From an uncultured Gammaproteobacteria bacterium (GTDB lineage: Bacteria; Patescibacteriota; Patescibacteriia; UBA2591; UBA6264), in the NCBI GenBank assembly GCA_964507075.1, contig CAZDOL010000010.1, forward strand, positions 1-8,584: 8,584 nucleotides of DNA, in the 5' to 3' direction. The translations under genes and the position numbers were made by a program. Each line of letters begins with the position of its first letter. Within the stretch, counting starts at the first letter, position 1. A model generated the notes under the pieces. It saw only the letters and a list, made by a program, of their open reading frames with translations, was not told the origin of the DNA and made no database searches. Shown here in pieces: positions 1-8,584 of this stretch.

Positions 1-61
1 TTCTGAACCCAGCTCGCGTACCGCTTTAATTGGCGAACAGCCAAACCCTTGGGAGTTGCTT

Positions 62-95
<34 letters not shown>

Positions 96-328
96 TCGAA
101 CTTCGCCGTCGATATGAACTCTCAGGCGAAACTAACCTGTTATCCCCAGAGTAGCTTTTATCCGTTAATCTTCTCCGCTCCTATAAGCAAGAGTCGGTTC
201 ACTAAGTCCGAGTTTCCTCTCGGCGCGACTTGTAAGTCTTGCCGTCAAGCTGACTTGTGCCTTTACACGTCCAGCGCGATTTCCATCCGCGCTAAGTCAA
301 CCTTTAAACGCCTCCGTTACCTTTTGGG

Positions 329-1304
329 CATTTGTGTTAATCTAATCCTTTAAGTTTATAGTCCATAGAAGGGATAATAAATTCTTTAATCAAATTATAA
401 AATTTATTTGCTGATTCAGCTAATATCATAATTTGATATCCTTCTTTCTGCTTCCTTAATTTGCAACTTAAGTCAAATTTCGTCTGCAAAATTAGGATTA
501 ACCTTCTAATTTCCTTAACTGAAAAACATTGAGTATTAAGAATTCTAGCTCTATGATTCTTAGATTTAATTGAACCATCATCCATAAACCAAATGGCCAA
601 AGATAATGGAGTCAACCACTTATGAATCAACTTAGGAATAACTTTTTTATCCTGAGGATAAAATTGATGAGCGTAGAATCTGAAAGAACTATGACTTAAG
701 GTGTTAAACCAATATTTTTCATATGCCTTTCCATTAAATGTCTGCTTTTTAATTTGAGGCTTGGTTAAAACCCAGTCTTTAAATTCTTGATAACACCAAT
801 CAACATATTCTTTCTGTTTGAAAGAATGTTCTATCTTTAAACGATATGTCTTACCGTCATTAGATGTTTCTAGGTGTCCATCTCCTAACAACTTGCCGAT
901 AATAATCTGGCGTTGTTTAGATGTTAATTTCAATGTTTTCTTAATATTTTCAATTTTATTTGAATACATATATTTTTTGATTAGGTCTTGAGTTTATTTA
1001 AGGGCGAAATCTTAAATTTTTCCCTGATTTAAGGGTAACCCAAGTCTTTCAGTTCCCTGAAAGATCAGACTATATCATATTCCTACAAAGTGCAGGAATC
1101 TGGCGTGTAGTCGTTGAGGGGTCGTCTTTGTGACGACTTCCCTGCTGATTGCCTATCGAATCTCTATGATTCTTTTTAATAAATTTTACCATTAAGGTTT
1201 ATTAAAATTAAATAGGGTTTCCAGCATATAGCCAGTTTGCTTTTGACTTTTCAGTCAAAAGGCCCCTGAATCACAATAAAAAACGGAGAAATTGTGATCA
1301 GTTG
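329..1304 (-). mobile_element. Group I intron in 23S domain V (E. coli-equivalent site ~2262), 976 nt, carrying a LAGLIDADG ORF in its 3' portion
   Basis: Removing it restores contiguous 23S sequence GGCGGATGCCT|CCCAAAAGGTAACGGAGG at the same length as E. coli. The upstream exon ends in U (1305) and the intron ends in G (329). Minus-strand core elements match the classical group I consensus: P GGCTATATGCTGGAAAC (1217-1233), Q CAATCAGCAGG (1141-1151), R CAACGACTACACGCCAGA (1099-1116), S GATATAGTC (1068-1076). There is a P2-like hairpin CTTTTGACT-GAAA-AGTCAAAAG (1240-1261) and a P9-like hairpin TCTTTCAG-GGAA-CTGAAAGA (1045-1064), both with GNRA loops. The one-C boundary ambiguity (1304/328) does not change the spliced product. 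Confidence 0.88.
337..969 (-). CDS. LAGLIDADG homing endonuclease, double-motif (monomeric, I-SceI/LAGLIDADG_2-like), intron-encoded
   Basis: The 210-aa ORF lies entirely inside the intron. It has two LAGLIDADG motifs, IIIGKLLGDGHLE and LSLAIWFMDDGS, and a C-terminal IPSMDYKL typical of organellar/bacterial rRNA-intron endonucleases. It uses an ATG start with no obvious SD. The TAA stop is 8 nt before the 3' splice site. Confidence 0.9.
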   Translation of the reverse strand: MYSNKIENIKKTLKLTSKQRQIIIGKLLGDGHLETSNDGKTYRLKIEHSFKQKEYVDWCYQEFKDWVLTKPQIKKQTFNGKAYEKYWFNTLSHSSFRFYAHQFYPQDKKVIPKLIHKWLTPLSLAIWFMDDGSIKSKNHRARILNTQCFSVKEIRRLILILQTKFDLSCKLRKQKEGYQIMILAESANKFYNLIKEFIIPSMDYKLKGLD

Positions 1305-1607
1305 AGGCATCCGCCCCAGACAAACTAACCACCAGATACTGTCTCCCCCCCAAAGGGGGATTAAGGATCAAAAATATATAAGGGTGGTATCTCACTGGTG
1401 CTCCGAAGAGCTCCCACCTATTACTGAACAGATATACCCCTAATCCAATATCAAGCTTTAGTAAAGCTTCATGGGGTCTTTTCGTCTAACTGTGCGTAGA
1501 GCGCATCTTCACGCCCATTGCAATTTCATCGAGTCCCTCGTTGAGACAGTTGCCAAGTCGTTATGCCATTCATGCAGGTCGTAACTTACACGACAAGGAA
1601 TTTCGTT

Positions 1608-2352
1608 CAGTTTTGTTACTCTCCTAATTTTAGGAGGGATTAGTCATTTCTGCTAATCTCTTCGGCTCTCACCGAAGCTCGGACTATATCTTCCGAATAC
1701 ATAATGTTTTATGTATCTCGGTCTAGCGTATAGTCTCTGAGGATGACAAAAATTTGGCTGGCTTTTTTCGATTCATTGTTTCAATGATTCTCGCAATTCT
1801 TTCACAACCTTGTTGACTTAAATGTTTTCCTGAACGCATTATTCTTACAATTTTTGCGAATTTCCTGAAGTCATTGATTTTCGCTGTTTTTAATTGATTC
1901 TGCCGAAAAAATGGAATAATTTTATTTTCTAAATCATCCAATTTTCTCACACAGTATCGGTATAAATCTTCTCTGTGATTACCATACTTACGATTGATAT
2001 AAACCTTTCCACATTGGAAAAATTTTTCTAATTTCTTTAATACCTTTACACTCTTAGCTCCCTGAGCAACAATAAATTCTGGAAATATTTGCCAACCGGA
2101 ACTGGTAGTAGGATTTCTAAAGATGCTTACGGAAAAACATCCTTCACCATCAATGAAACCTACGATCCAACCGATTAATTTTTGCCTTTCCTGCTGATTA
2201 TCTGCAACAAATGTTTTTTTACTGTACATATAATTACCTCTATCATTAATTATCTATGGGGTAACTATACCATAGTAACATTTGTTTTGCAACTATTAAA
2301 AGTACAGACGTTCCAGCATATAGCTAGATTTTACTAAGGCAAGAAAAATCCA
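1608..2352 (-). mobile_element. Group I intron at 23S site L1931 (between U1931 and A1932, E. coli numbering), 745 nt, carrying a LAGLIDADG ORF
   Basis: Removal restores CCGTCCTAAGGT|AACGAAATTCCTTGTCG (E. coli CCTAAGGTAGCGAAATTCCTTGTCG), with U at 2353 and omega-G at 1608. The internal guide GCCTTAG (2334-2340) is complementary to exon CTAAGGT, including the terminal U.G wobble (P1). Core elements are P CTATATGCTGGAA (2311-2324), Q AATCAGCAGG (2190-2199), R TCAGAGACTATACG (1727-1740) and S GATATAGTCC (1681-1690). A P8-like hairpin lies between R and S. Confidence 0.9.
1723..2229 (-). CDS. LAGLIDADG homing endonuclease, single-motif (homodimeric I-CreI/I-CpaI-like, LAGLIDADG_1), intron-encoded
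   Basis: This 168-aa ORF has one LAGLIDADG motif, LIGWIVGFIDGEGCFSV. Its size and downstream pattern (IIPFF..., KHLSQQG, MNRKK) are typical of single-motif family members. An SD-like AGAGGT lies 7 nt upstream of the ATG. The TAG stop falls inside the ribozyme R element. Confidence 0.9.
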   Translation of the reverse strand: MYSKKTFVADNQQERQKLIGWIVGFIDGEGCFSVSIFRNPTTSSGWQIFPEFIVAQGAKSVKVLKKLEKFFQCGKVYINRKYGNHREDLYRYCVRKLDDLENKIIPFFRQNQLKTAKINDFRKFAKIVRIMRSGKHLSQQGCERIARIIETMNRKKPAKFLSSSETIR

Positions 2353-2366
2353 ACCTTAGGACGGTT
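2353..2366 (-). rRNA. rrl: 14-nt 23S micro-exon (AACCGTCCTAAGGT = E. coli 1918-1931, 3' strand of helix 69) between two group I introns
   Basis: This is the only stretch between the omega-G of the L1917 intron (2367) and the first nt of the L1931 intron (2352). Its sequence matches E. coli AACGGUCCUAAGGU except for G1921C. That change is compensated by C1909G in the opposite helix-69 strand (GGCGG/CCGUC). Confidence 0.85.
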
Positions 2367-2691
2367 CTTTCATGTTAACTCCGTTAAATAAAATTAACGG
2401 AACCTAATCGCAAATAGACACTAAATATCTAATACAATTAGCTCATAATCGCTTATGAGAGCGGACTATATCATCTCCAAAACTATATTGGAGTCTGGCG
2501 TGTAGTCTCTGAGGATTCTCCATTTTACAGGAGTCTTTCCTGCTGATTGACCGCAGTCTGACATTTTCACTGCGGTGATTAGTCTATTCTTATATAAGAC
2601 TAATACCGCGAGTAGTCAAGACATACAACGGTGTTTCCAGCATATAGCCAAATTTATTTAAGTAACTACAACCTATAACCGTTAAATCATT
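2367..2691 (-). mobile_element. Group I intron at 23S site L1917 (after U1917, helix 69 loop), 325 nt, ORF-less
   Basis: Removal restores GGCGGTAACTAT|AACCGTCCTAAGGT, with U at 2692 and omega-G at 2367. P1 forms between guide GTAGTTAC (2662-2669) and exon GTAACTAT (2692-2699), with a terminal U.G. P10 forms between ACGGTT (2677-2682) and the 3' exon AACCGT (2361-2366). Core elements are P GGCTATATGCTGGAAAC (2633-2649), Q CAATCAGCAGG (2539-2549), R TCAGAGACTACACGCCAGA (2494-2512) and S GATATAGTC (2464-2472). The P8 hairpin is CTCCAA-TATAGT-TTGGAG. No ORF of meaningful length is present. Confidence 0.9.
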
Positions 2692-3588
2692 ATAGTTACC
2701 GCCGGCGTTCATCAGCGCTTGGATTCAAAGCTCGATCAATACCGAAGTATCAACTTCACCTCTCCTCTTAACGTTCTGACACTGGCCAGGCATCAGCCCC
2801 TATATATCACCTTACGGTTTGAGCAGGGACCTATGTTTTTGTTAAACAGTCGCTTGGCGTACTTTAGCTGCGCCCCCTCTGTCCGAAAACAGAGAGAGAG
2901 TCCTTATTCCGAAGTTTCGGACGCTTTTTTGCCGAGTTCCTAAACGAGGGTTCTCTCGTCCACCTGAGGATACTCTCCTCACCCACCTGTGTCGGTTTGC
3001 GGTACGGATAATATTAGCTTAGCCCTAGAAACTTTTCTTGGCTTCCACTCCCTTCAAATCTCCCCTTGCGAGAATTTTATTCGTAGCAGGCATTACATCT
3101 TCCGGATTTGCCTAGAAGACCCGCCCAACTACTTAAACGCGTATAGCCAGAACACGCTCAAAGCTTACAGAAGCGTCATTCCATCAGATGCTAATATTAG
3201 AGACGGAATATTAACCGTCTGTCCATTATCTTTACCCTTCGGCAAAGACTTAGGGCCGCCTAACCCTGGGTTGACAATCAGTGCCCAGGAAACCTTGGGT
3301 TTGCGGTGGTTCGGATTCTCACCGAACTTTTTACTACTTATGCCAACATTCTCTCTTCTTTGCGCTCCACCAGACCTTACAGTCTGACTTCACCGCACAA
3401 AGAATGCTCCCCTACCACGCCGATGCAAAACATCGACGTTCTCATCTTCGGTATTGAATTTAGCCCCGGTACATTTTCGGCGCAAGACAACTTGATCAGT
3501 GAGCTGTTACGCTTTCTTTAAAGGATGGCTGCTTCTAAGCCAACCTCCTGATTGTCCAAGTCATTTCACTACCTTTTACACTTAATCC

Positions 3589-3620
3589 TCAGCCAATAAA
3601 GGCTGATCCGTCTGAGACGG
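3589..3620 (-). other. Small 23S expansion (two mini-hairpins) absent from E. coli
   Basis: About 32 extra nt sit between GGTCCCTAAATTTT and GGATTAAGTG relative to E. coli GGUCCCAAAGUCAUGGUUAAGUG. They fold as CCGTC-TCA-GACGG (3608-3620) and TCAGCC-TTTATT-GGCTGA (3589-3606). Confidence 0.5.
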
Positions 3621-4164
3621 AAAATTTAGGGACCTTAGATTGAGATCTGGGCTGTTTCCCTTTCGACTGATGGAGCTTAGCCCCCATAGTCTGACTCCGC
3701 TCTATTTTGGCTCTGGTATTCGGAGTTTGATTGAATGAGGTAGGATTACTCCACCCTCACTCATCCAGTAGCTCTACCCCCAGAGAGTAAAGAACGGGCT
3801 AGCCCTAAAGCTATTTCGGGGAGAACCAGCTATCACTGAGTTCGATTGGCTTTTTACCCCTATCCACAGCTCATCCCATGATGTTGTACGGTCAACGGGT
3901 TCGGGCCTCCTCTGTCAATTAAGACAGACTCACCCTGGCCATGGATAGCTCACTCAGTTTCGGGTCTTTCCCATCATATTGATAATTCGCACTTTTAATA
4001 CTCGCTTTCGCTTCGGCTTCGTCTATATTTAGACTTAACCAAACATGATAAGAAAACTCGTTGGCTCATTCTTCAATAGGAACGCCATCACCCTTCGACA
4101 AGCTCAGGGCTCTGACTCTTTGTTAGCATATGGTTTCAGGTACTTTTCATCGCCCTAACCGGGC

Positions 4165-4203
<39 letters not shown>

Positions 4204-4420
4204 ATCACCAAAAGTATTTAGTCTTAGGCGATAGTCCGCCTTGATTCATGCCAAATTTCACGGGTTTGGCATTACTCGGGTATAATTAACTATTAAAATT
4301 TAAATTTTTTTAATTTACGGGACTTTCACCCCCTATGGTTAGCAATTCCATGCTATTGAACTAAAAATTTAAACCCTAACTTTGCTCAGTAAAAAACAAA
4401 ACATTAACTACCCCACAACA

Positions 4421-4509
4421 CTTTATAGAATATTTTAGCTTTACTACCTTTCATTAAATAAAAGAAATATCCGAAGATAAGACTCCTATAAAATTTAGAT
4501 TCTATAAAG
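4421..4509 (-). other. AT-rich ~89-nt structured expansion segment (or IVS) in 23S domain I
   Basis: It is closed by a perfect 11-bp inverted repeat, CTTTATAGAAT (4421-4431) / ATTCTATAAAG (4499-4509). On the minus strand it is capped by TATC-TTCG-GATA (UUCG tetraloop, ~4468-4479). E. coli has only ~30 nt across the wider interval (~4380-4515), whereas this sequence has ~160 nt. Confidence 0.5.
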
Positions 4510-4934
4510 TTTAGACTGTTTCCCTTTCGCTCGCCGCTACTAAGGAAATCGCAGATAAAATTAAAATTTTATCATTTCGCTCTCTTTTCCTCCGGGTACT
4601 GAGATGTTTCACTTCCCCGGGTACCCCACTTAATTTGCATTAAGTTAATTCGTCTTCAACGAATTGGGTTTCCCCATTCGGAAATCCTCGGATCAAAGGT
4701 TGCTTGCCACCTTCCCGAGGCTTATCGCAGGCTGCTACGTCCTTCATCGGCTTTTGGTGTCTAGGCATCCACCATATGCACTAATTAATTCTCTAATTCA
4801 TCATTTAATTCATAATATAATATAAATTAAATAATATTTTGTTGGCGTGTGTTCACCCCATTAAATATACTCAAAACGAGATTACCTAATAAGGTTAAGA
4901 TGCTCTATACTAACTTATTTAATTTTCAAAGAAC

Positions 4935-4962
4935 AATTAAAAAAACCGCCTAGTCAGCGGTT
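4935..4962 (-). terminator. Rho-independent terminator candidate downstream of pyrG
   Basis: The minus strand reads AACCGC-TGACTAG-GCGGTT followed by TTTTTAATT. This gives a 6-bp stem (4 GC), a 7-nt loop and an effective U7 tract. It lies ~185 nt after the pyrG stop and ~140 nt before the 23S 5' end. Confidence 0.5.
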
Positions 4963-5145
4963 GAGCTTTGGTTTTATAATAACCAAAAAAATTAACCGTC
5001 CGACTGAATGGGAATATGTTTAATAGTTTTTACTAAAATAAACATTTCAAAAATAATTTTTAGAGATTAAATTATTTTATTTTTGCACAGTGATAATTTA
5101 ACCTCAGGTTTTTTTAATTAGTTTTATTATAAACGAAAACCTTAA

Positions 5146-6783
5146 TTAGTCAATTGTGGATAAGTCCTGGGAATTTGAAAGACAAGCTTTAATGAAAGCT
5201 ACAAATAAAGGATGTGGATTCATAAATCTAGATTTATATTCAGGATGAAATTGGGTAGCTATAAAAAAAGGATGCCCTGGAATCTCAATAATCTCCACCA
5301 GTTTATTATCTGGAGAAAAACCGCTAATTACCAAACCTTTCTTTTCCATAATCTCCCTATATTCATTATTAAATTCGTAACGATGACGATGTCTTTCAAA
5401 AATTTCGCTTTTTTTGTAAATTTTAGCTGCCCTACTATTCTTCTTTAAACAACAAGGATAAGCGCCCAACCTAATAGTGCCTCCATATTGCTTGTTAGCA
5501 ATCATTTCCTTTTGGTTCGGCATAAGATGAATAACGTGATATTTGGAACGGGAATTAATTTCTTCTGACGTGGCTTCTTTTAATTGGCAAACGTTCCTGG
5601 CAAATTCAATTACCGCCATCTGCATACCGTAACAAAGACCAAAACAAGGTTTTCTCTTTTCTCGGCAATATTTAATAGTTTTAATCATTCCCTCAGACCC
5701 CCTTTTTCCCCAGCCTTGAGTAATAATCAGCCCTGCCATCTTTTTTAAATCTTTTGTTCCATACTTCTCTACGTCTCGGCTATTTATCCAATGAAAAACG
5801 GGACGACAATTATTAATCCAGCAACCATGTTTAACTGCTTCAATTACTGAAATGTAGGAATCAGCTAAAGTGAATTTTCCAGTTTTAAAATATTTGCCAA
5901 TTATTCCAATATGAAGCGTATGACGGGCTTTATTAATAATCCTTGATGCCCTAGACCAATCATGGAGATTAGTTTTGCGAATGGGTAGTTTTAACTTTTT
6001 TAAAATTTTCTTACCCAACTTATCATCCTCAAAATTCAGAGGAATATCATAAATAGATTCTACATCGGGAGCAGAAATAACATCAGTTTCACTGATGTTG
6101 CAAAAAATAGAAATTTTTCCTTTGCGGACATCATCTAAGGGACTAGATGACCTGGCCAGAATAAAATCAGGCTGAATGCCAGCTGAATTCAATGTACGAA
6201 CAGCATACTGAGTCGGTTTGGTTTTCATCTCGCCAATCTTAGCGGGAACAGGTAAATAACTAAGCATAACAAAAAGAACATGATGGGAATTTTCTAGTTT
6301 CATCATTCTAGCTGCTTCTAAAAATATAGCATTTTGATATTCTCCGATTGTTCCCCCAACTTCTATCAATACTATTTCAGCCTTAGCTTTGTGGCCTGCC
6401 TTTTTAATGCGACCAATAACTTCGTTGGGAATATCTGGAATAACCTCTACGCATCGGCCATTATAATCCAAGTTCCTTTCTTTTTGAATAACTGCATTGT
6501 AAACACTTCCAGTGGTCATATAATTTAAACTGGAAATATTTTGGTTTAAAAATCTCTCATAGTTTCCTATATCTTGATCTGTTTCTAATCCATCTTCTGT
6601 AACAAAAACTTCACCATGCTCTATTGGGTTCATGGTGCCAGCATCAACATTAATATATGGATCAATTTTAATTGCTGTAATGCGATAACCCTTACTCTGT
6701 AAAATTTTACCAATGGAAGCCGTAGCAATACCCTTACCTAAGCCCGACATTACGCCTCCAGTTATAAAAATGTATTTTGTCAT
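5146..6783 (-). CDS. pyrG: CTP synthase (glutamine-hydrolysing)
   Basis: The protein shows full-length family hallmarks. The N-terminus is MTKYIFITGGVMSGLGKG, followed by DPYINVDAGTMNPIEHGEVFVTEDGLETDQDIGNYERF. The amidotransferase motifs GLCYGMQ (nucleophile Cys) and ATQFHPEYKS (His/Glu) are present. I place the start at ATG 6783, matching the conserved MTKYIF N-terminus, rather than the TTG at 6795 used by the ORF track. The stop is TAA. Confidence 0.95.
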   Translation of the reverse strand: MTKYIFITGGVMSGLGKGIATASIGKILQSKGYRITAIKIDPYINVDAGTMNPIEHGEVFVTEDGLETDQDIGNYERFLNQNISSLNYMTTGSVYNAVIQKERNLDYNGRCVEVIPDIPNEVIGRIKKAGHKAKAEIVLIEVGGTIGEYQNAIFLEAARMMKLENSHHVLFVMLSYLPVPAKIGEMKTKPTQYAVRTLNSAGIQPDFILARSSSPLDDVRKGKISIFCNISETDVISAPDVESIYDIPLNFEDDKLGKKILKKLKLPIRKTNLHDWSRASRIINKARHTLHIGIIGKYFKTGKFTLADSYISVIEAVKHGCWINNCRPVFHWINSRDVEKYGTKDLKKMAGLIITQGWGKRGSEGMIKTIKYCREKRKPCFGLCYGMQMAVIEFARNVCQLKEATSEEINSRSKYHVIHLMPNQKEMIANKQYGGTIRLGAYPCCLKKNSRAAKIYKKSEIFERHRHRYEFNNEYREIMEKKGLVISGFSPDNKLVEIIEIPGHPFFIATQFHPEYKSRFMNPHPLFVAFIKACLSNSQDLSTID

Positions 6784-6827
6784 AAACGCAATCAATTAAT
6801 TATTAAAAAAGAAATAAGAAACAAATT

Positions 6828-6871
6828 AATGTTCCAATGTTCCAATGTTCCAATGTTCCAATGTTCCAATG
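6828..6871. repeat. Perfect tandem octanucleotide repeat, AATGTTCC x5.5 (minus strand TTGGAACA)
   Basis: Read directly from the sequence: aatgttcc at 6828, 6836, 6844, 6852 and 6860, plus aatg at 6868-6871. The array begins 2 nt after the stop codon (6874-6876) of the upstream gene and ends 44 nt before the pyrG ATG. Confidence 0.95.
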
Positions 6872-6873
6872 AT

Positions 6874-8487
6874 TTATCTAATATCTTCTTTCTTCTCTTT
6901 TAGAAAATATCTCCATTGTTCTAAAAATTCTACAAATATTAAAAAGGGAGTATCAATTAAAACATTAAAAGCTACCCCCAAAATATTAATTTTTTTCCAA
7001 CGAGCAAGAAGCCATTTGCCTAAACGAATTACTGGTAAAGAAAATAGATCTACAATAACCTGGAAAAAACTTTCTTTCTTCTCTGTGACATGCAACTCTC
7101 TAGACCTGTTTCTGATTTTTGTCCCAGTAAAAGCAATCAAGGAAGTAAACATGATTAATAAAGCATAGGATAACGGTGGATAACTTAATTTATAGAGGGC
7201 AAAAAGAATAAGACCAAAACAAACACAAAAACTAATAGTGTAAAGTAAATTATTAATCAATCTAAAAATTATATTGCCCTTGGGATAGATTTCCACTTCA
7301 TAACTTTCTTCTGGTTGATCATCATAAATTATTTTTTGCACTTCTTGAATAACCAACCTTCTGTTTTCTTTGGGTGGCATTCTAACGGTAGAAATCAAAA
7401 AGAGCATTAAACAAGTTGGGCCCAAAACATCTACTATAGCTGCCACAGGATTAATATTACCCATTACATATTTAGCAAAAGGAAACTCTAAAACATAAAG
7501 GGTAAATATATTAGTACAAAAAATAGATAAAGTACTATAAAAAGCTGCTCTACCTATACGAGATCGTAGCGTTTTAAGGCGCAAAGAATATGCTTTAGAA
7601 ACCAACTTATCTAAATTATTTTGATCAGGAATTTCAACTGCAATTTCTTGAGGATTTTCAGTTATAATGTCGTCTAAGAGCAAATAAGGTGTGTCATACC
7701 TCTCTGCTATTTTATAGAATTTATCTGCCAATGGATGATCTAGCGTTTTTTCAATGTCTTCTAAAATAATACAAATATTTTGAGCAAATTCTTGAATTTG
7801 ATCTTGAGAAGCACATTCCCAAAATGGATAACGACGTTTAATAAGGTTATAGCTAATAATCGGTAAATCTAATCTAAAAAGAGCTTGTTGAGCGGCAACA
7901 TAAATTTGTATATTTATTTCTTCTTCAGTAATCTCACTCAATTTTTGAGCTCTTTCACCAATTTTTATACGCGCCCTCATTATAGTTTCTACAAAGCTTA
8001 AAAGAGCATTTTGTTTAAAATAAAAATTTGGATCTAAGGTTTCTTCAATTTCGCAAGCCGCTATACCTAATATCCCCGTATAAAGCTCGCCTTTATTTTT
8101 ATCTTTAATATCTATTTTCTTTAAATTATCTAAAATAAAAATATATTTATCTAAAATATTTTGAGTTATACCAACCTTAGCTTTCTCTATGGGGGCATTA
8201 GAAAAATATCCTCCCCTTACTAATTCAAAAATAAAGGGCTCGGAAATTTGTTGTTCTTTGGTCCTTAAAAGCAACCTTCTTTTTAAAATTCTCTCAATAG
8301 CTACCCTTCTCATTAAATGCTGTTCTTTCCAGTCTACTATCTTTCTAATGCGCTCATAAAAAGAAGCTACCTTGCTGGCTACTTCATCAACCTTAATAGT
8401 AATCGCCTCTGGATCAGGAGTAAGCGATTTTTGCCAAAATTGATAATCTTTAATTAATTTTCGTATAGCTGGAGAAATCTCTGACAT
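6874..8487 (-). CDS. Hypothetical protein: ~310-aa N-terminal soluble, helix-rich domain plus ~6 predicted transmembrane segments; no family recognised
   Basis: This is a 537-aa uninterrupted ORF with an ATG start. Its AT-rich codon usage matches pyrG. Hydrophobic stretches include AAFYSTLSIFCTNIFTLYVL, AAIVDVLGPTCLMLFLISTV, LLYTISFCVCFGLILFALYKL, LSYALLIMFTSLIAFTG and ILGVAFNVLIDTPFLIFV. I recognise no catalytic motif. Confidence 0.75.
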   Translation of the reverse strand: MSEISPAIRKLIKDYQFWQKSLTPDPEAITIKVDEVASKVASFYERIRKIVDWKEQHLMRRVAIERILKRRLLLRTKEQQISEPFIFELVRGGYFSNAPIEKAKVGITQNILDKYIFILDNLKKIDIKDKNKGELYTGILGIAACEIEETLDPNFYFKQNALLSFVETIMRARIKIGERAQKLSEITEEEINIQIYVAAQQALFRLDLPIISYNLIKRRYPFWECASQDQIQEFAQNICIILEDIEKTLDHPLADKFYKIAERYDTPYLLLDDIITENPQEIAVEIPDQNNLDKLVSKAYSLRLKTLRSRIGRAAFYSTLSIFCTNIFTLYVLEFPFAKYVMGNINPVAAIVDVLGPTCLMLFLISTVRMPPKENRRLVIQEVQKIIYDDQPEESYEVEIYPKGNIIFRLINNLLYTISFCVCFGLILFALYKLSYPPLSYALLIMFTSLIAFTGTKIRNRSRELHVTEKKESFFQVIVDLFSLPVIRLGKWLLARWKKINILGVAFNVLIDTPFLIFVEFLEQWRYFLKEKKEDIR

Positions 8488-8522
8488 ATATTATATTATT
8501 AATCAATAATAGTTACCCCTTA

Positions 8523-8550
8523 ATTCTAATACAATTAAATGATTTGTCAA
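8523..8550 (-). promoter_or_regulatory. Sigma70-type promoter candidate for the membrane-protein/pyrG transcription unit
   Basis: On the minus strand there is TTGACA (8545-8550), a 16-nt spacer and TAGAAT (8523-8528), ending ~35 nt upstream of the ATG at 8487. This rests on sequence pattern only. Confidence 0.4.
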
Positions 8551-8584
8551 AAAAATATTTTATGTTAAAGTCAATAGTATGGAA

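Follow-up and report, generated by a model that had tools for sequence, protein, structure and literature searches.

The 23S rRNA gene encoded on the minus strand of contig CAZDOL010000010.1 (GCA_964507075.1) very probably carries three independent group I introns that are spliced by the standard route, the second and third of which have spread by homing. The analysis covered positions 1-8,584 of the contig, an 8,584-nucleotide (nt) stretch referred to here as the window, and all coordinates are window positions. The insertion sites, the intron boundaries, the group I fold, the intact open reading frames (ORFs) with their catalytic residues and the presence or absence of the introns among relatives were all observed directly. 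A preliminary description, made from the letters of the window, had proposed three introns amounting to 2046 nt, and both the minus-strand reading and the computed segments (325 + 745 + 976 nt) reproduce its coordinates and total exactly. The gene is arranged as follows, HEG2 and HEG3 being the homing endonuclease genes (HEGs) of introns 2 and 3.

1-4795, minus strand: 23S rRNA gene (Rfam LSU_rRNA_bacteria), reaching the window edge near model position 2616 of 2925 and incomplete there, with an approximate 5' end near 4795
2692-4795, minus strand: exon 1, ending ...GGCGGUAACUAU, the last U being E. coli U1917 in the loop of helix 69 (H69)
2367-2691, minus strand: intron 1 (site L1917), 325 nt, without an ORF, ending ...GAAAG; Rfam Intron_gpI match of 74.7 bits at 2701-2442
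2353-2366, minus strand: exon 2, the micro-exon AACCGUCCUAAGGU, 14 nt, E. coli 1918-1931
1608-2352, minus strand: intron 2 (site L1931), 745 nt, ending ...AAAACUG; partial Rfam match of 30.3 bits (E=3.6e-5) at 1813-1660
1723-2229, minus strand: HEG2, an ORF of 168 amino acids in intron 2, LAGLIDADG_1
1305-1607, minus strand: exon 3, 303 nt, E. coli 1932-2262, ending ...GGGGCGGAUGCCU
329-1304, minus strand: intron 3 (site L2262), 976 nt, with core P2-P9 at 1291-1046; Rfam Intron_gpI match of 76.9 bits
337-969, minus strand: HEG3, an ORF of 210 amino acids in intron 3, LAGLIDADG_2, I-SceI-like
1-328, minus strand: exon 4, E. coli 2263 onward, with CCCAAAAGGUAACGGAGG as its first bases and truncated where the window ends

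The minus-strand gene matches the Rfam covariance model of bacterial large-subunit (LSU) rRNA with 1376 bits, and a search restricted to positions 1-2900 returns one LSU alignment interrupted by three large insertions. Global alignment of the spliced exons with rrlB of E. coli K-12 (2904 nt), the reference for numbering, sets the insertions after E. coli U1917, U1931 and U2262, which span 345 nt in E. coli numbering and 317 nt of exon in the window. The rrl copy of E. coli ST2747 (L001) was discarded as a numbering reference, being offset by -1 and +2 against the standard landmarks, and was replaced by rrlB. In the ribosome structure the three sites correspond to the loop of H69, its 3' exit (the H69/H71 junction) and helix 81 (H81) beside the P-loop. 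The alignment indeed places L1917 in the H69 loop and L2262 at 9 nt past G2253 of the P-loop, and the locations given in the preliminary description (helix 69, its 3' exit and just after the P-loop) thus hold. Its observation that an exon U precedes each intron, whose last base is G, is true of all three. The predicted ligated junctions are AACUAU|AACCGU at 1917, AAGGU|AACGAA at 1931 and GCCU|CCCAAA at 2262; the sequence would read AACUAU|AACCGUCCUAAGGU|AACGAAAU across the micro-exon, and GAUGCCU|CCCAAAAGG across 2262. The exons are richer in G+C than the introns and the neighbouring genes, as had been remarked: G+C content is 45.5% in the exons, 31-36% in the introns and 31-35% in the flanking genes.

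The boundaries can be compared with alleles in which the sites are empty. Relatives were found by scanning species-representative genomes with the protein of the upstream gene, pyrG (best match, 85% amino-acid identity). In L004, L005 and L010, whose exons are 97-99%, 90-96% and 82-92% identical to those of the window, all three insertion sites are empty. The junctions of L004 and L005 equal the predicted ligated exons base for base, including a lineage-specific A at 1933, while L010 is uninterrupted at the junctions and differs at a few positions, among them a G at 1933. This position (window 1606) adjoins the L1931 splice site, and E. coli carries the G as well. A metagenome scan for the ligated 1917/1931 junction yielded seven more intron-less alleles (L102-L108) with 97-98% exon identity, which are empty also at 2262 wherever their contigs extend there. 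Since intron-less relatives read as the predicted ligated exons, the spliced product is unambiguous; a shift of 1-2 nt in the cut points of introns 1 and 3 would leave it unchanged, and the rule of a preceding U and a terminal G selects the positions listed above. Every sister sequence found at 97-98% identity lacks the three introns, which fits their gain in the window lineage, with loss elsewhere being another possibility.

The same 23S gene shows a second presence/absence polymorphism. An AT-rich insertion of about 150 nt lies in the hairpin near E. coli 1863-1870 in L004 (13584-13737) and recurs in L102, L103, L104 and L106; the window has only 13 extra nt at this place (2746-2758), and L105, L107 and L108 are without the insertion. 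Compared with E. coli, the window gene further contains AT-rich expansions at 4368-4504 (about 95 + 31 nt, near 277-288), 4559-4580 (22 nt, near 223) and 3590-3622 (33 nt, near 1013). None of these three gave a group I match; probably they are expansion segments or intervening sequences of the ordinary kind.

With Rfam Intron_gpI (RF00028), intron 1 scores 74.7 bits and intron 3 scores 76.9 bits, above the gathering score of 50 bits, and the E-values for the introns are 1e-18, 6e-18 and, in the case of intron 2, 4e-5. Direct checking of the helices showed that P3, P4, P5, P6, P6a, P7, P8 and P9 form in each intron. Of the P/Q/R/S elements that the preliminary description had reported, R and S were read in all three: R has the sequence TCAGAGACTACA, TCAGAGACTATA and TCAACGACTACA in introns 1, 2 and 3, respectively, and S (GATATAGTC) is common to them. 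P4, R and S are near-identical among the introns, yet P3, P5, P6a, P8 and P9 are built from wholly different sequences that are nevertheless complementary, and a G-C pair of P7 in introns 1 and 2 is replaced by A-U in intron 3. The compensatory changes in P6 and P8 claimed at the outset are borne out, but the "three copies" among which they were placed are not: the introns are three separate lineages with one architecture, rather than copies of one element.

A U·G wobble in P1 marks every 5' splice site (3/3 introns). In intron 1, P1 pairs GUAACUAU|AAU with GUUGUAGUUAC, having the U·G at the splice site; in intron 2, CUAAGGU pairs with GCCUUAG and ends in U·G; in intron 3, GCCU|C pairs with GGGGC, again with the U·G present. 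P10 has 6 base pairs in intron 1 (AACCGU/ACGGUU) and 4 plus 2 base pairs with a bulge in intron 2. The micro-exon is used twice, contributing its first 6 nt to P10 in intron 1 and its last 7 nt to P1 in intron 2; because these segments do not overlap, no order of splicing is forced. The introns also differ in what they add to the core. In intron 1 the P3-P9 core is followed by a P9.x extension of 75 nt. The ORF of intron 2 is held in the loop closed by P6a (GGCAAAAAUU/AAUUUUUGUC), while that of intron 3 comes after P9 and before the 3' splice site, this intron ending ...CACAAAUG, 8 nt after the stop codon.

Homologous introns from other members of the Candidate Phyla Radiation (CPR) allow the folds to be examined by covariation. 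Homologues of HEG3 with 57-70% identity occur in four other CPR lineages (L092, L094, L095/L096 and L097), each within an intron at precisely L2262, the source names of the HEG3 homologues including Uhrbacteria, Doudnabacteria and "Patescibacteria group". These introns lie between an exon ending ...GGGGCGGNNGCCU and CCYAAAWKGUAACGGAGG, and their HEG stop codons precede the terminal G by 2-9 nt. Three of these cores were scanned with Rfam, those of L092, L094 and L097, and score 70-84 bits. Unguided folding of five L2262 cores in RNAalifold recovered P1, P2, P3, P4, P5, P6, P8 and P9, with compensatory changes in 27 of 54 pairs, and the splice-site U·G is invariant in 5/5 L2262 introns. Homologues of HEG2 lie likewise at L1931, in introns ending G|AGCGAAAUUCC, with one exception (L095). 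For six ORF-deleted L1931 introns, that of the window among them, RNAalifold gave P3-P9 together with the P6a stem that closes the ORF, and 27 of the 55 pairs show compensatory changes. Group I identity, as originally claimed, is thus borne out by significant covariance-model matches for all three introns, above threshold for introns 1 and 3 and partial for intron 2, where covariation among six homologues is added.

In the exceptional L1931 intron (L095:2493-3258; the HEG3 homologue of this contig is named Doudnabacteria), the guide sequence co-varies with an exon change (CUAUGGU/GCUAUAG) and the U·G of P1 puts the 5' splice site after CCUAUGGU. An A directly precedes the 3' exon AGCGAAAUUCC (..GAUUCA|AGCG), and this intron therefore appears to have no canonical terminal G. 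A Coxiella 23S intron has likewise been reported without one. Concerning L1917, the 5' 165 nt and the P7-P9 region of intron 1 closely match the L1917 intron of L092. In L092 and L033, P6 of the L1917 intron holds a LAGLIDADG_1 gene at the very point that a short hairpin occupies in the window. Intron 1 thus belongs to an L1917 family whose other members have a HEG in P6, the gene having been either lost from intron 1 or never present in it. The 23S genes of L092, L094, L095 and L097 contain three to six LAGLIDADG genes in their 3' half, in varied combinations of 1917, 1931, 1951, 2262 and positions further downstream, and site occupancy among CPR lineages looks shuffled.

The two endonuclease genes differ in architecture, as the preliminary description had recognized, one encoding a single-domain LAGLIDADG_1 protein and the other an I-SceI-like monomer with two motifs; no ORF was found in intron 1. 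HEG2 (168 amino acids) has one Pfam LAGLIDADG_1 domain (PF00961, 3e-23) with the motif GFIDGEG. Its best matches in the PDB are halves of enzymes of the I-SmaMI/I-OnuI family (about 1e-36), and single-domain homodimeric enzymes are matched as well; identity with I-ShaI is 38%. GAGG is found 8 nt upstream of its ATG. The HEG2 ORF begins in the P5 loop and overlaps the ribozyme core at both ends: the frame reads through P5'-P4'-P6 as NQQER, encoded by AAUCAGCAGGAAAGG, and through P6'-P7-P3' as SETIR followed by the stop, encoded by UCAGAGACUAUACGCUAG. NQQE occurs in 112 of 120 HEG2 homologues, whose commonest C-termini are SETxR, and I-ShaI shares with HEG2 these core-encoded NQQER and ETIR ends. 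HEG3 (210 amino acids) matches Pfam LAGLIDADG_2 (PF03161, 3e-54), with the motifs LLGDGHL and WFMDDGS. It aligns with I-SceI over the full length (3e-32), and the catalytic Asp of both motifs is conserved; the Asp residues of LLGDG and FMDDG align with I-SceI D44 and D145. The HEG3 family comprises >1300 proteins at E<=1e-10, and the source names are without exception those of CPR phyla. From their sequences, HEG2 is predicted to act as an endonuclease of the homodimer type and HEG3 as an I-SceI-like monomer.

From these features we infer the course of splicing chemistry, exon ligation and endonuclease activity at the window locus. Each intron would be transcribed within the pre-23S RNA and would fold into a group I core (P1, P3-P9). 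It would then most likely be removed by two-step guanosine-initiated transesterification, in which the first cut falls after the U of the P1 U·G and the second after the terminal G, and exon ligation would make helix 69, the H69/H71 junction and, next to the P-loop, helix 81 whole again. Removal is presumably essential, given where the insertions sit in the established structure of the ribosome: the loop of H69, the 3' exit of that helix and, 9 nt past the P-loop, H81. HEG2 at L1931 and HEG3 at L2262 would cut intron-less 23S alleles such as that of L004, whose empty sites read ...ACCGTCCTAAGGT^AACGAAATTCC... and ...GGGGCGGATGCCT^CCCAAAAGGTAACGG... and are the candidate targets of the two enzymes, and repair would copy the intron in.

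Several observations weigh against this account. The match of intron 2 is confined to its 3' half and, at 30.3 bits, falls below the gathering score as it stands, a low score that is explained by the ORF separating the two halves of the core. In intron 3 the direct helix check found no convincing P10, and about 717 nt separate P9 from the 3' splice site; for these reasons intron 3 may need a protein cofactor, and of the three introns it is the likeliest to need protein help. No obvious ribosome-binding site was seen for HEG3. In addition, the Simkania L1931 intron has been reported as unspliced, according to the title of Everett 1999 as cited in PMC11270868.

An extension of the homing account holds that the introns are recent and still mobile, and that the L2262 family, which is widespread in the CPR, relies on its endonuclease as a maturase, or on translation, for the 3' splice site. 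The first part draws on the emptiness of all three sites in each sister 23S sequence found (97-98% exon identity), the second on an I-SceI-type gene whose end is 2-9 nt short of the terminal G, with no clear P10; we regard this combination as unlikely. Much less probable is the excision of the group I-derived insertions without exon ligation, by 3' splice-site hydrolysis or by host RNases, which would leave a fragmented 23S rRNA resembling that produced by RNase III-processed intervening sequences. Fragmenting intervening sequences are known in bacterial 23S rRNA and are suspected for some CPR insertions (PMC11270868), and the weak or absent P10 of intron 3 would accord with such a fate. Yet full cores, the P1 U·G, the terminal G and, in introns 1 and 2, P10 are all kept with covariation, which is hard to explain if ligation were dispensable, and the breaks would strike functional centres in H69 and beside the P-loop.

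The retention of one or more insertions in the mature 23S rRNA, as an unspliced expansion, is slightly less credible still. The Simkania L1931 precedent (Everett et al. 1999, by its title as cited in PMC11270868) speaks for it, but, given the established structure of the ribosome, an insert of 325-976 nt at any of these positions (H69 loop, H69/H71 junction, H81) would disrupt both a subunit bridge and the P site. The splice-site features are moreover conserved, and CPR insertions are reported to be absent from transcripts; the introduction of PMC11270868, citing Brown 2015, describes rRNA insertions of CPR bacteria as removed from them. An RNase III-type intervening sequence or an expansion segment, as the origin of the three large inserts, was rejected in view of the covariance-model matches together with the covariation.

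That introns of other organisms were stitched into the contig during assembly is barely conceivable: although the related contig L088 looks chimeric or recombinant (83% identity upstream of exon 3, 100% downstream), the identical arrangement occurs in seven contigs from different samples (six ENA assemblies and one from JGI), whose overlaps with the window are 99.8-100% identical to it. The source samples belong to the ENA ERZ272489xx series and JGI 3300028169. An exact copy of the HEG3 protein is present on 23 contigs, of which eight loci were retrieved, seven matching the window and the eighth being L088. One of the contigs, L084, contains the complete 23S gene of 5087 nt (3041 nt mature and 2046 nt intron), followed by the 5S gene, and no further intron was seen in that 23S gene. 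In L088 (positions 1-3726; ERZ27248885 k141_566578), the 5' 2.1 kb of the 23S gene are only 83% identical to the window and L1917 is empty; its L1931 intron is 77-85% identical to that of the window, and identity is 100% for 11 kb from about nt 10 of exon 3 onward. A compensatory change from G-C to A-U is found in its H69 stem. L088 is either a chimeric assembly or a recombinant with its breakpoint at the flank of intron 2, and as the contig may be chimeric it was not used as evidence of horizontal transfer.

The locus can be set beside known related systems. The preliminary description had pointed to introns at L1917 and L1931 in Coxiella, Thermotoga and Simkania, as well as to intron-rich rRNA genes in CPR bacteria, and both are documented, the two sites in cyanobacteria as well (PMC1995217, PMC11270868). 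Of 348 CPR 23S genes surveyed, 82% had insertions, and 45% of these insertions were classed as group I (Tsurumaki 2024, PMC11270868). Genes carried up to 16 insertions, with a mean total insert of 1327 bp per gene (standard deviation 1112); LAGLIDADG_1 was recorded at sites 1917, 1931, 1952, 2593, 2604 and 2657, together with 62 LAGLIDADG_2 ORFs in 23S genes (PMC11270868). The window gene shares with these insertions the clade, the group I class with LAGLIDADG_1 and LAGLIDADG_2 ORFs, the clustering in the 3' half and the named sites 1917 and 1931. The article does not describe the window locus and lineage, and the text consulted does not name 2262, although among the recurrent hot spots 23IS1-14 this site may be one of 23IS9-11, which appear only in figures. 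For I-ShaI, a CPR 23S endonuclease, experiments have demonstrated both cleavage of its insertion site and dimerisation (PMC11270868).

The closest parallel among cyanobacteria is Synechococcus sp. C9, which has L1917, L1931 and L2593 introns in one LSU rRNA gene (Haugen et al. 2007, PMC1995217). It likewise has three group I introns per gene with L1917 and L1931 occupied, implying the same 14-nt exon, whereas its third site is L2593 instead of L2262. All its three introns have single-motif HEGs; in the window, by contrast, intron 1 is without an ORF and intron 3 has a HEG of the I-SceI type. An overlap of the ORF with the ribozyme core has already been noted for the L1917 and L1931 introns of cyanobacteria (PMC1995217). 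Coxiella burnetii (L1917/L1951), Thermotoga (L1917/L1931) and Simkania (L1931) share L1917 or L1931 sites with the window, but their genes hold one or two introns each, with L2262 unoccupied (table in PMC1995217). L2262 is itself a standard intron site of organellar rnl, the eustigmatophyte mitochondria having group I introns there with a LAGLIDADG HEG (PMC13449250); site and HEG class are the same as in the window, the introns being mitochondrial and not bacterial. I-SceI belongs to the yeast mitochondrial omega intron at L2449, and HEG3, while aligned with it over the full length, sits at L2262.

The host is supported as a Patescibacteria (CPR) bacterium, in line with the origin first suggested, by its pyrG relatives and by the gene order shared with them. 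The best 80 pyrG relatives are overwhelmingly labelled as metagenome-assembled genomes of Patescibacteria/CPR, some third-party annotation (TPA) assemblies being labelled Gammaproteobacteria or "bacterium", and L004, L005 and L010 keep the pyrG-23S-5S order of the window. The same order agrees with the earlier remark that the 23S gene is unlinked, no 16S gene being found nearby; in L084 none was found within about 6 kb upstream or about 9 kb downstream. The pyrG ORF of the window has 549 amino acids from a TTG; no exact match to it was found in the protein collection, where a product of 545 amino acids is called from a downstream start. Between pyrG and the 23S gene, a strong promoter-like site on the minus strand at 5153-5126 (TTGACT-16-TATAAT, 11/12) shares bases with the stop codon of pyrG, a hairpin that resembles a terminator and has a T-run lies at 4962-4944 before the 23S start, and the intergenic region is 88% identical to that of L004. 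Directly upstream of pyrG, an ORF of 537 amino acids (6874-8487, minus strand) is conserved in all contigs of the population and has no Pfam match.

The window 23S gene is a typical, moderately intron-rich CPR 23S gene, which exhibits a known trait and leaves the picture of rRNA introns unchanged. Its value is that of a well-resolved case, in which exact junctions are backed by the empty-site alleles of sister lineages. Several of its features lend themselves to use as test cases: a 14-nt micro-exon serving the guide sequences of two ribozymes, ORF ends encoded by the ribozyme core, and a HEG-less intron beside two HEG-bearing ones. The locus thus offers ready substrates for studies of self-splicing and homing in Patescibacteria. 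If recent mobility and protein-assisted splicing both proved true, this population, which more than 20 assemblies have sampled, would let both rRNA-intron homing and protein-assisted splicing be followed in a natural CPR system.

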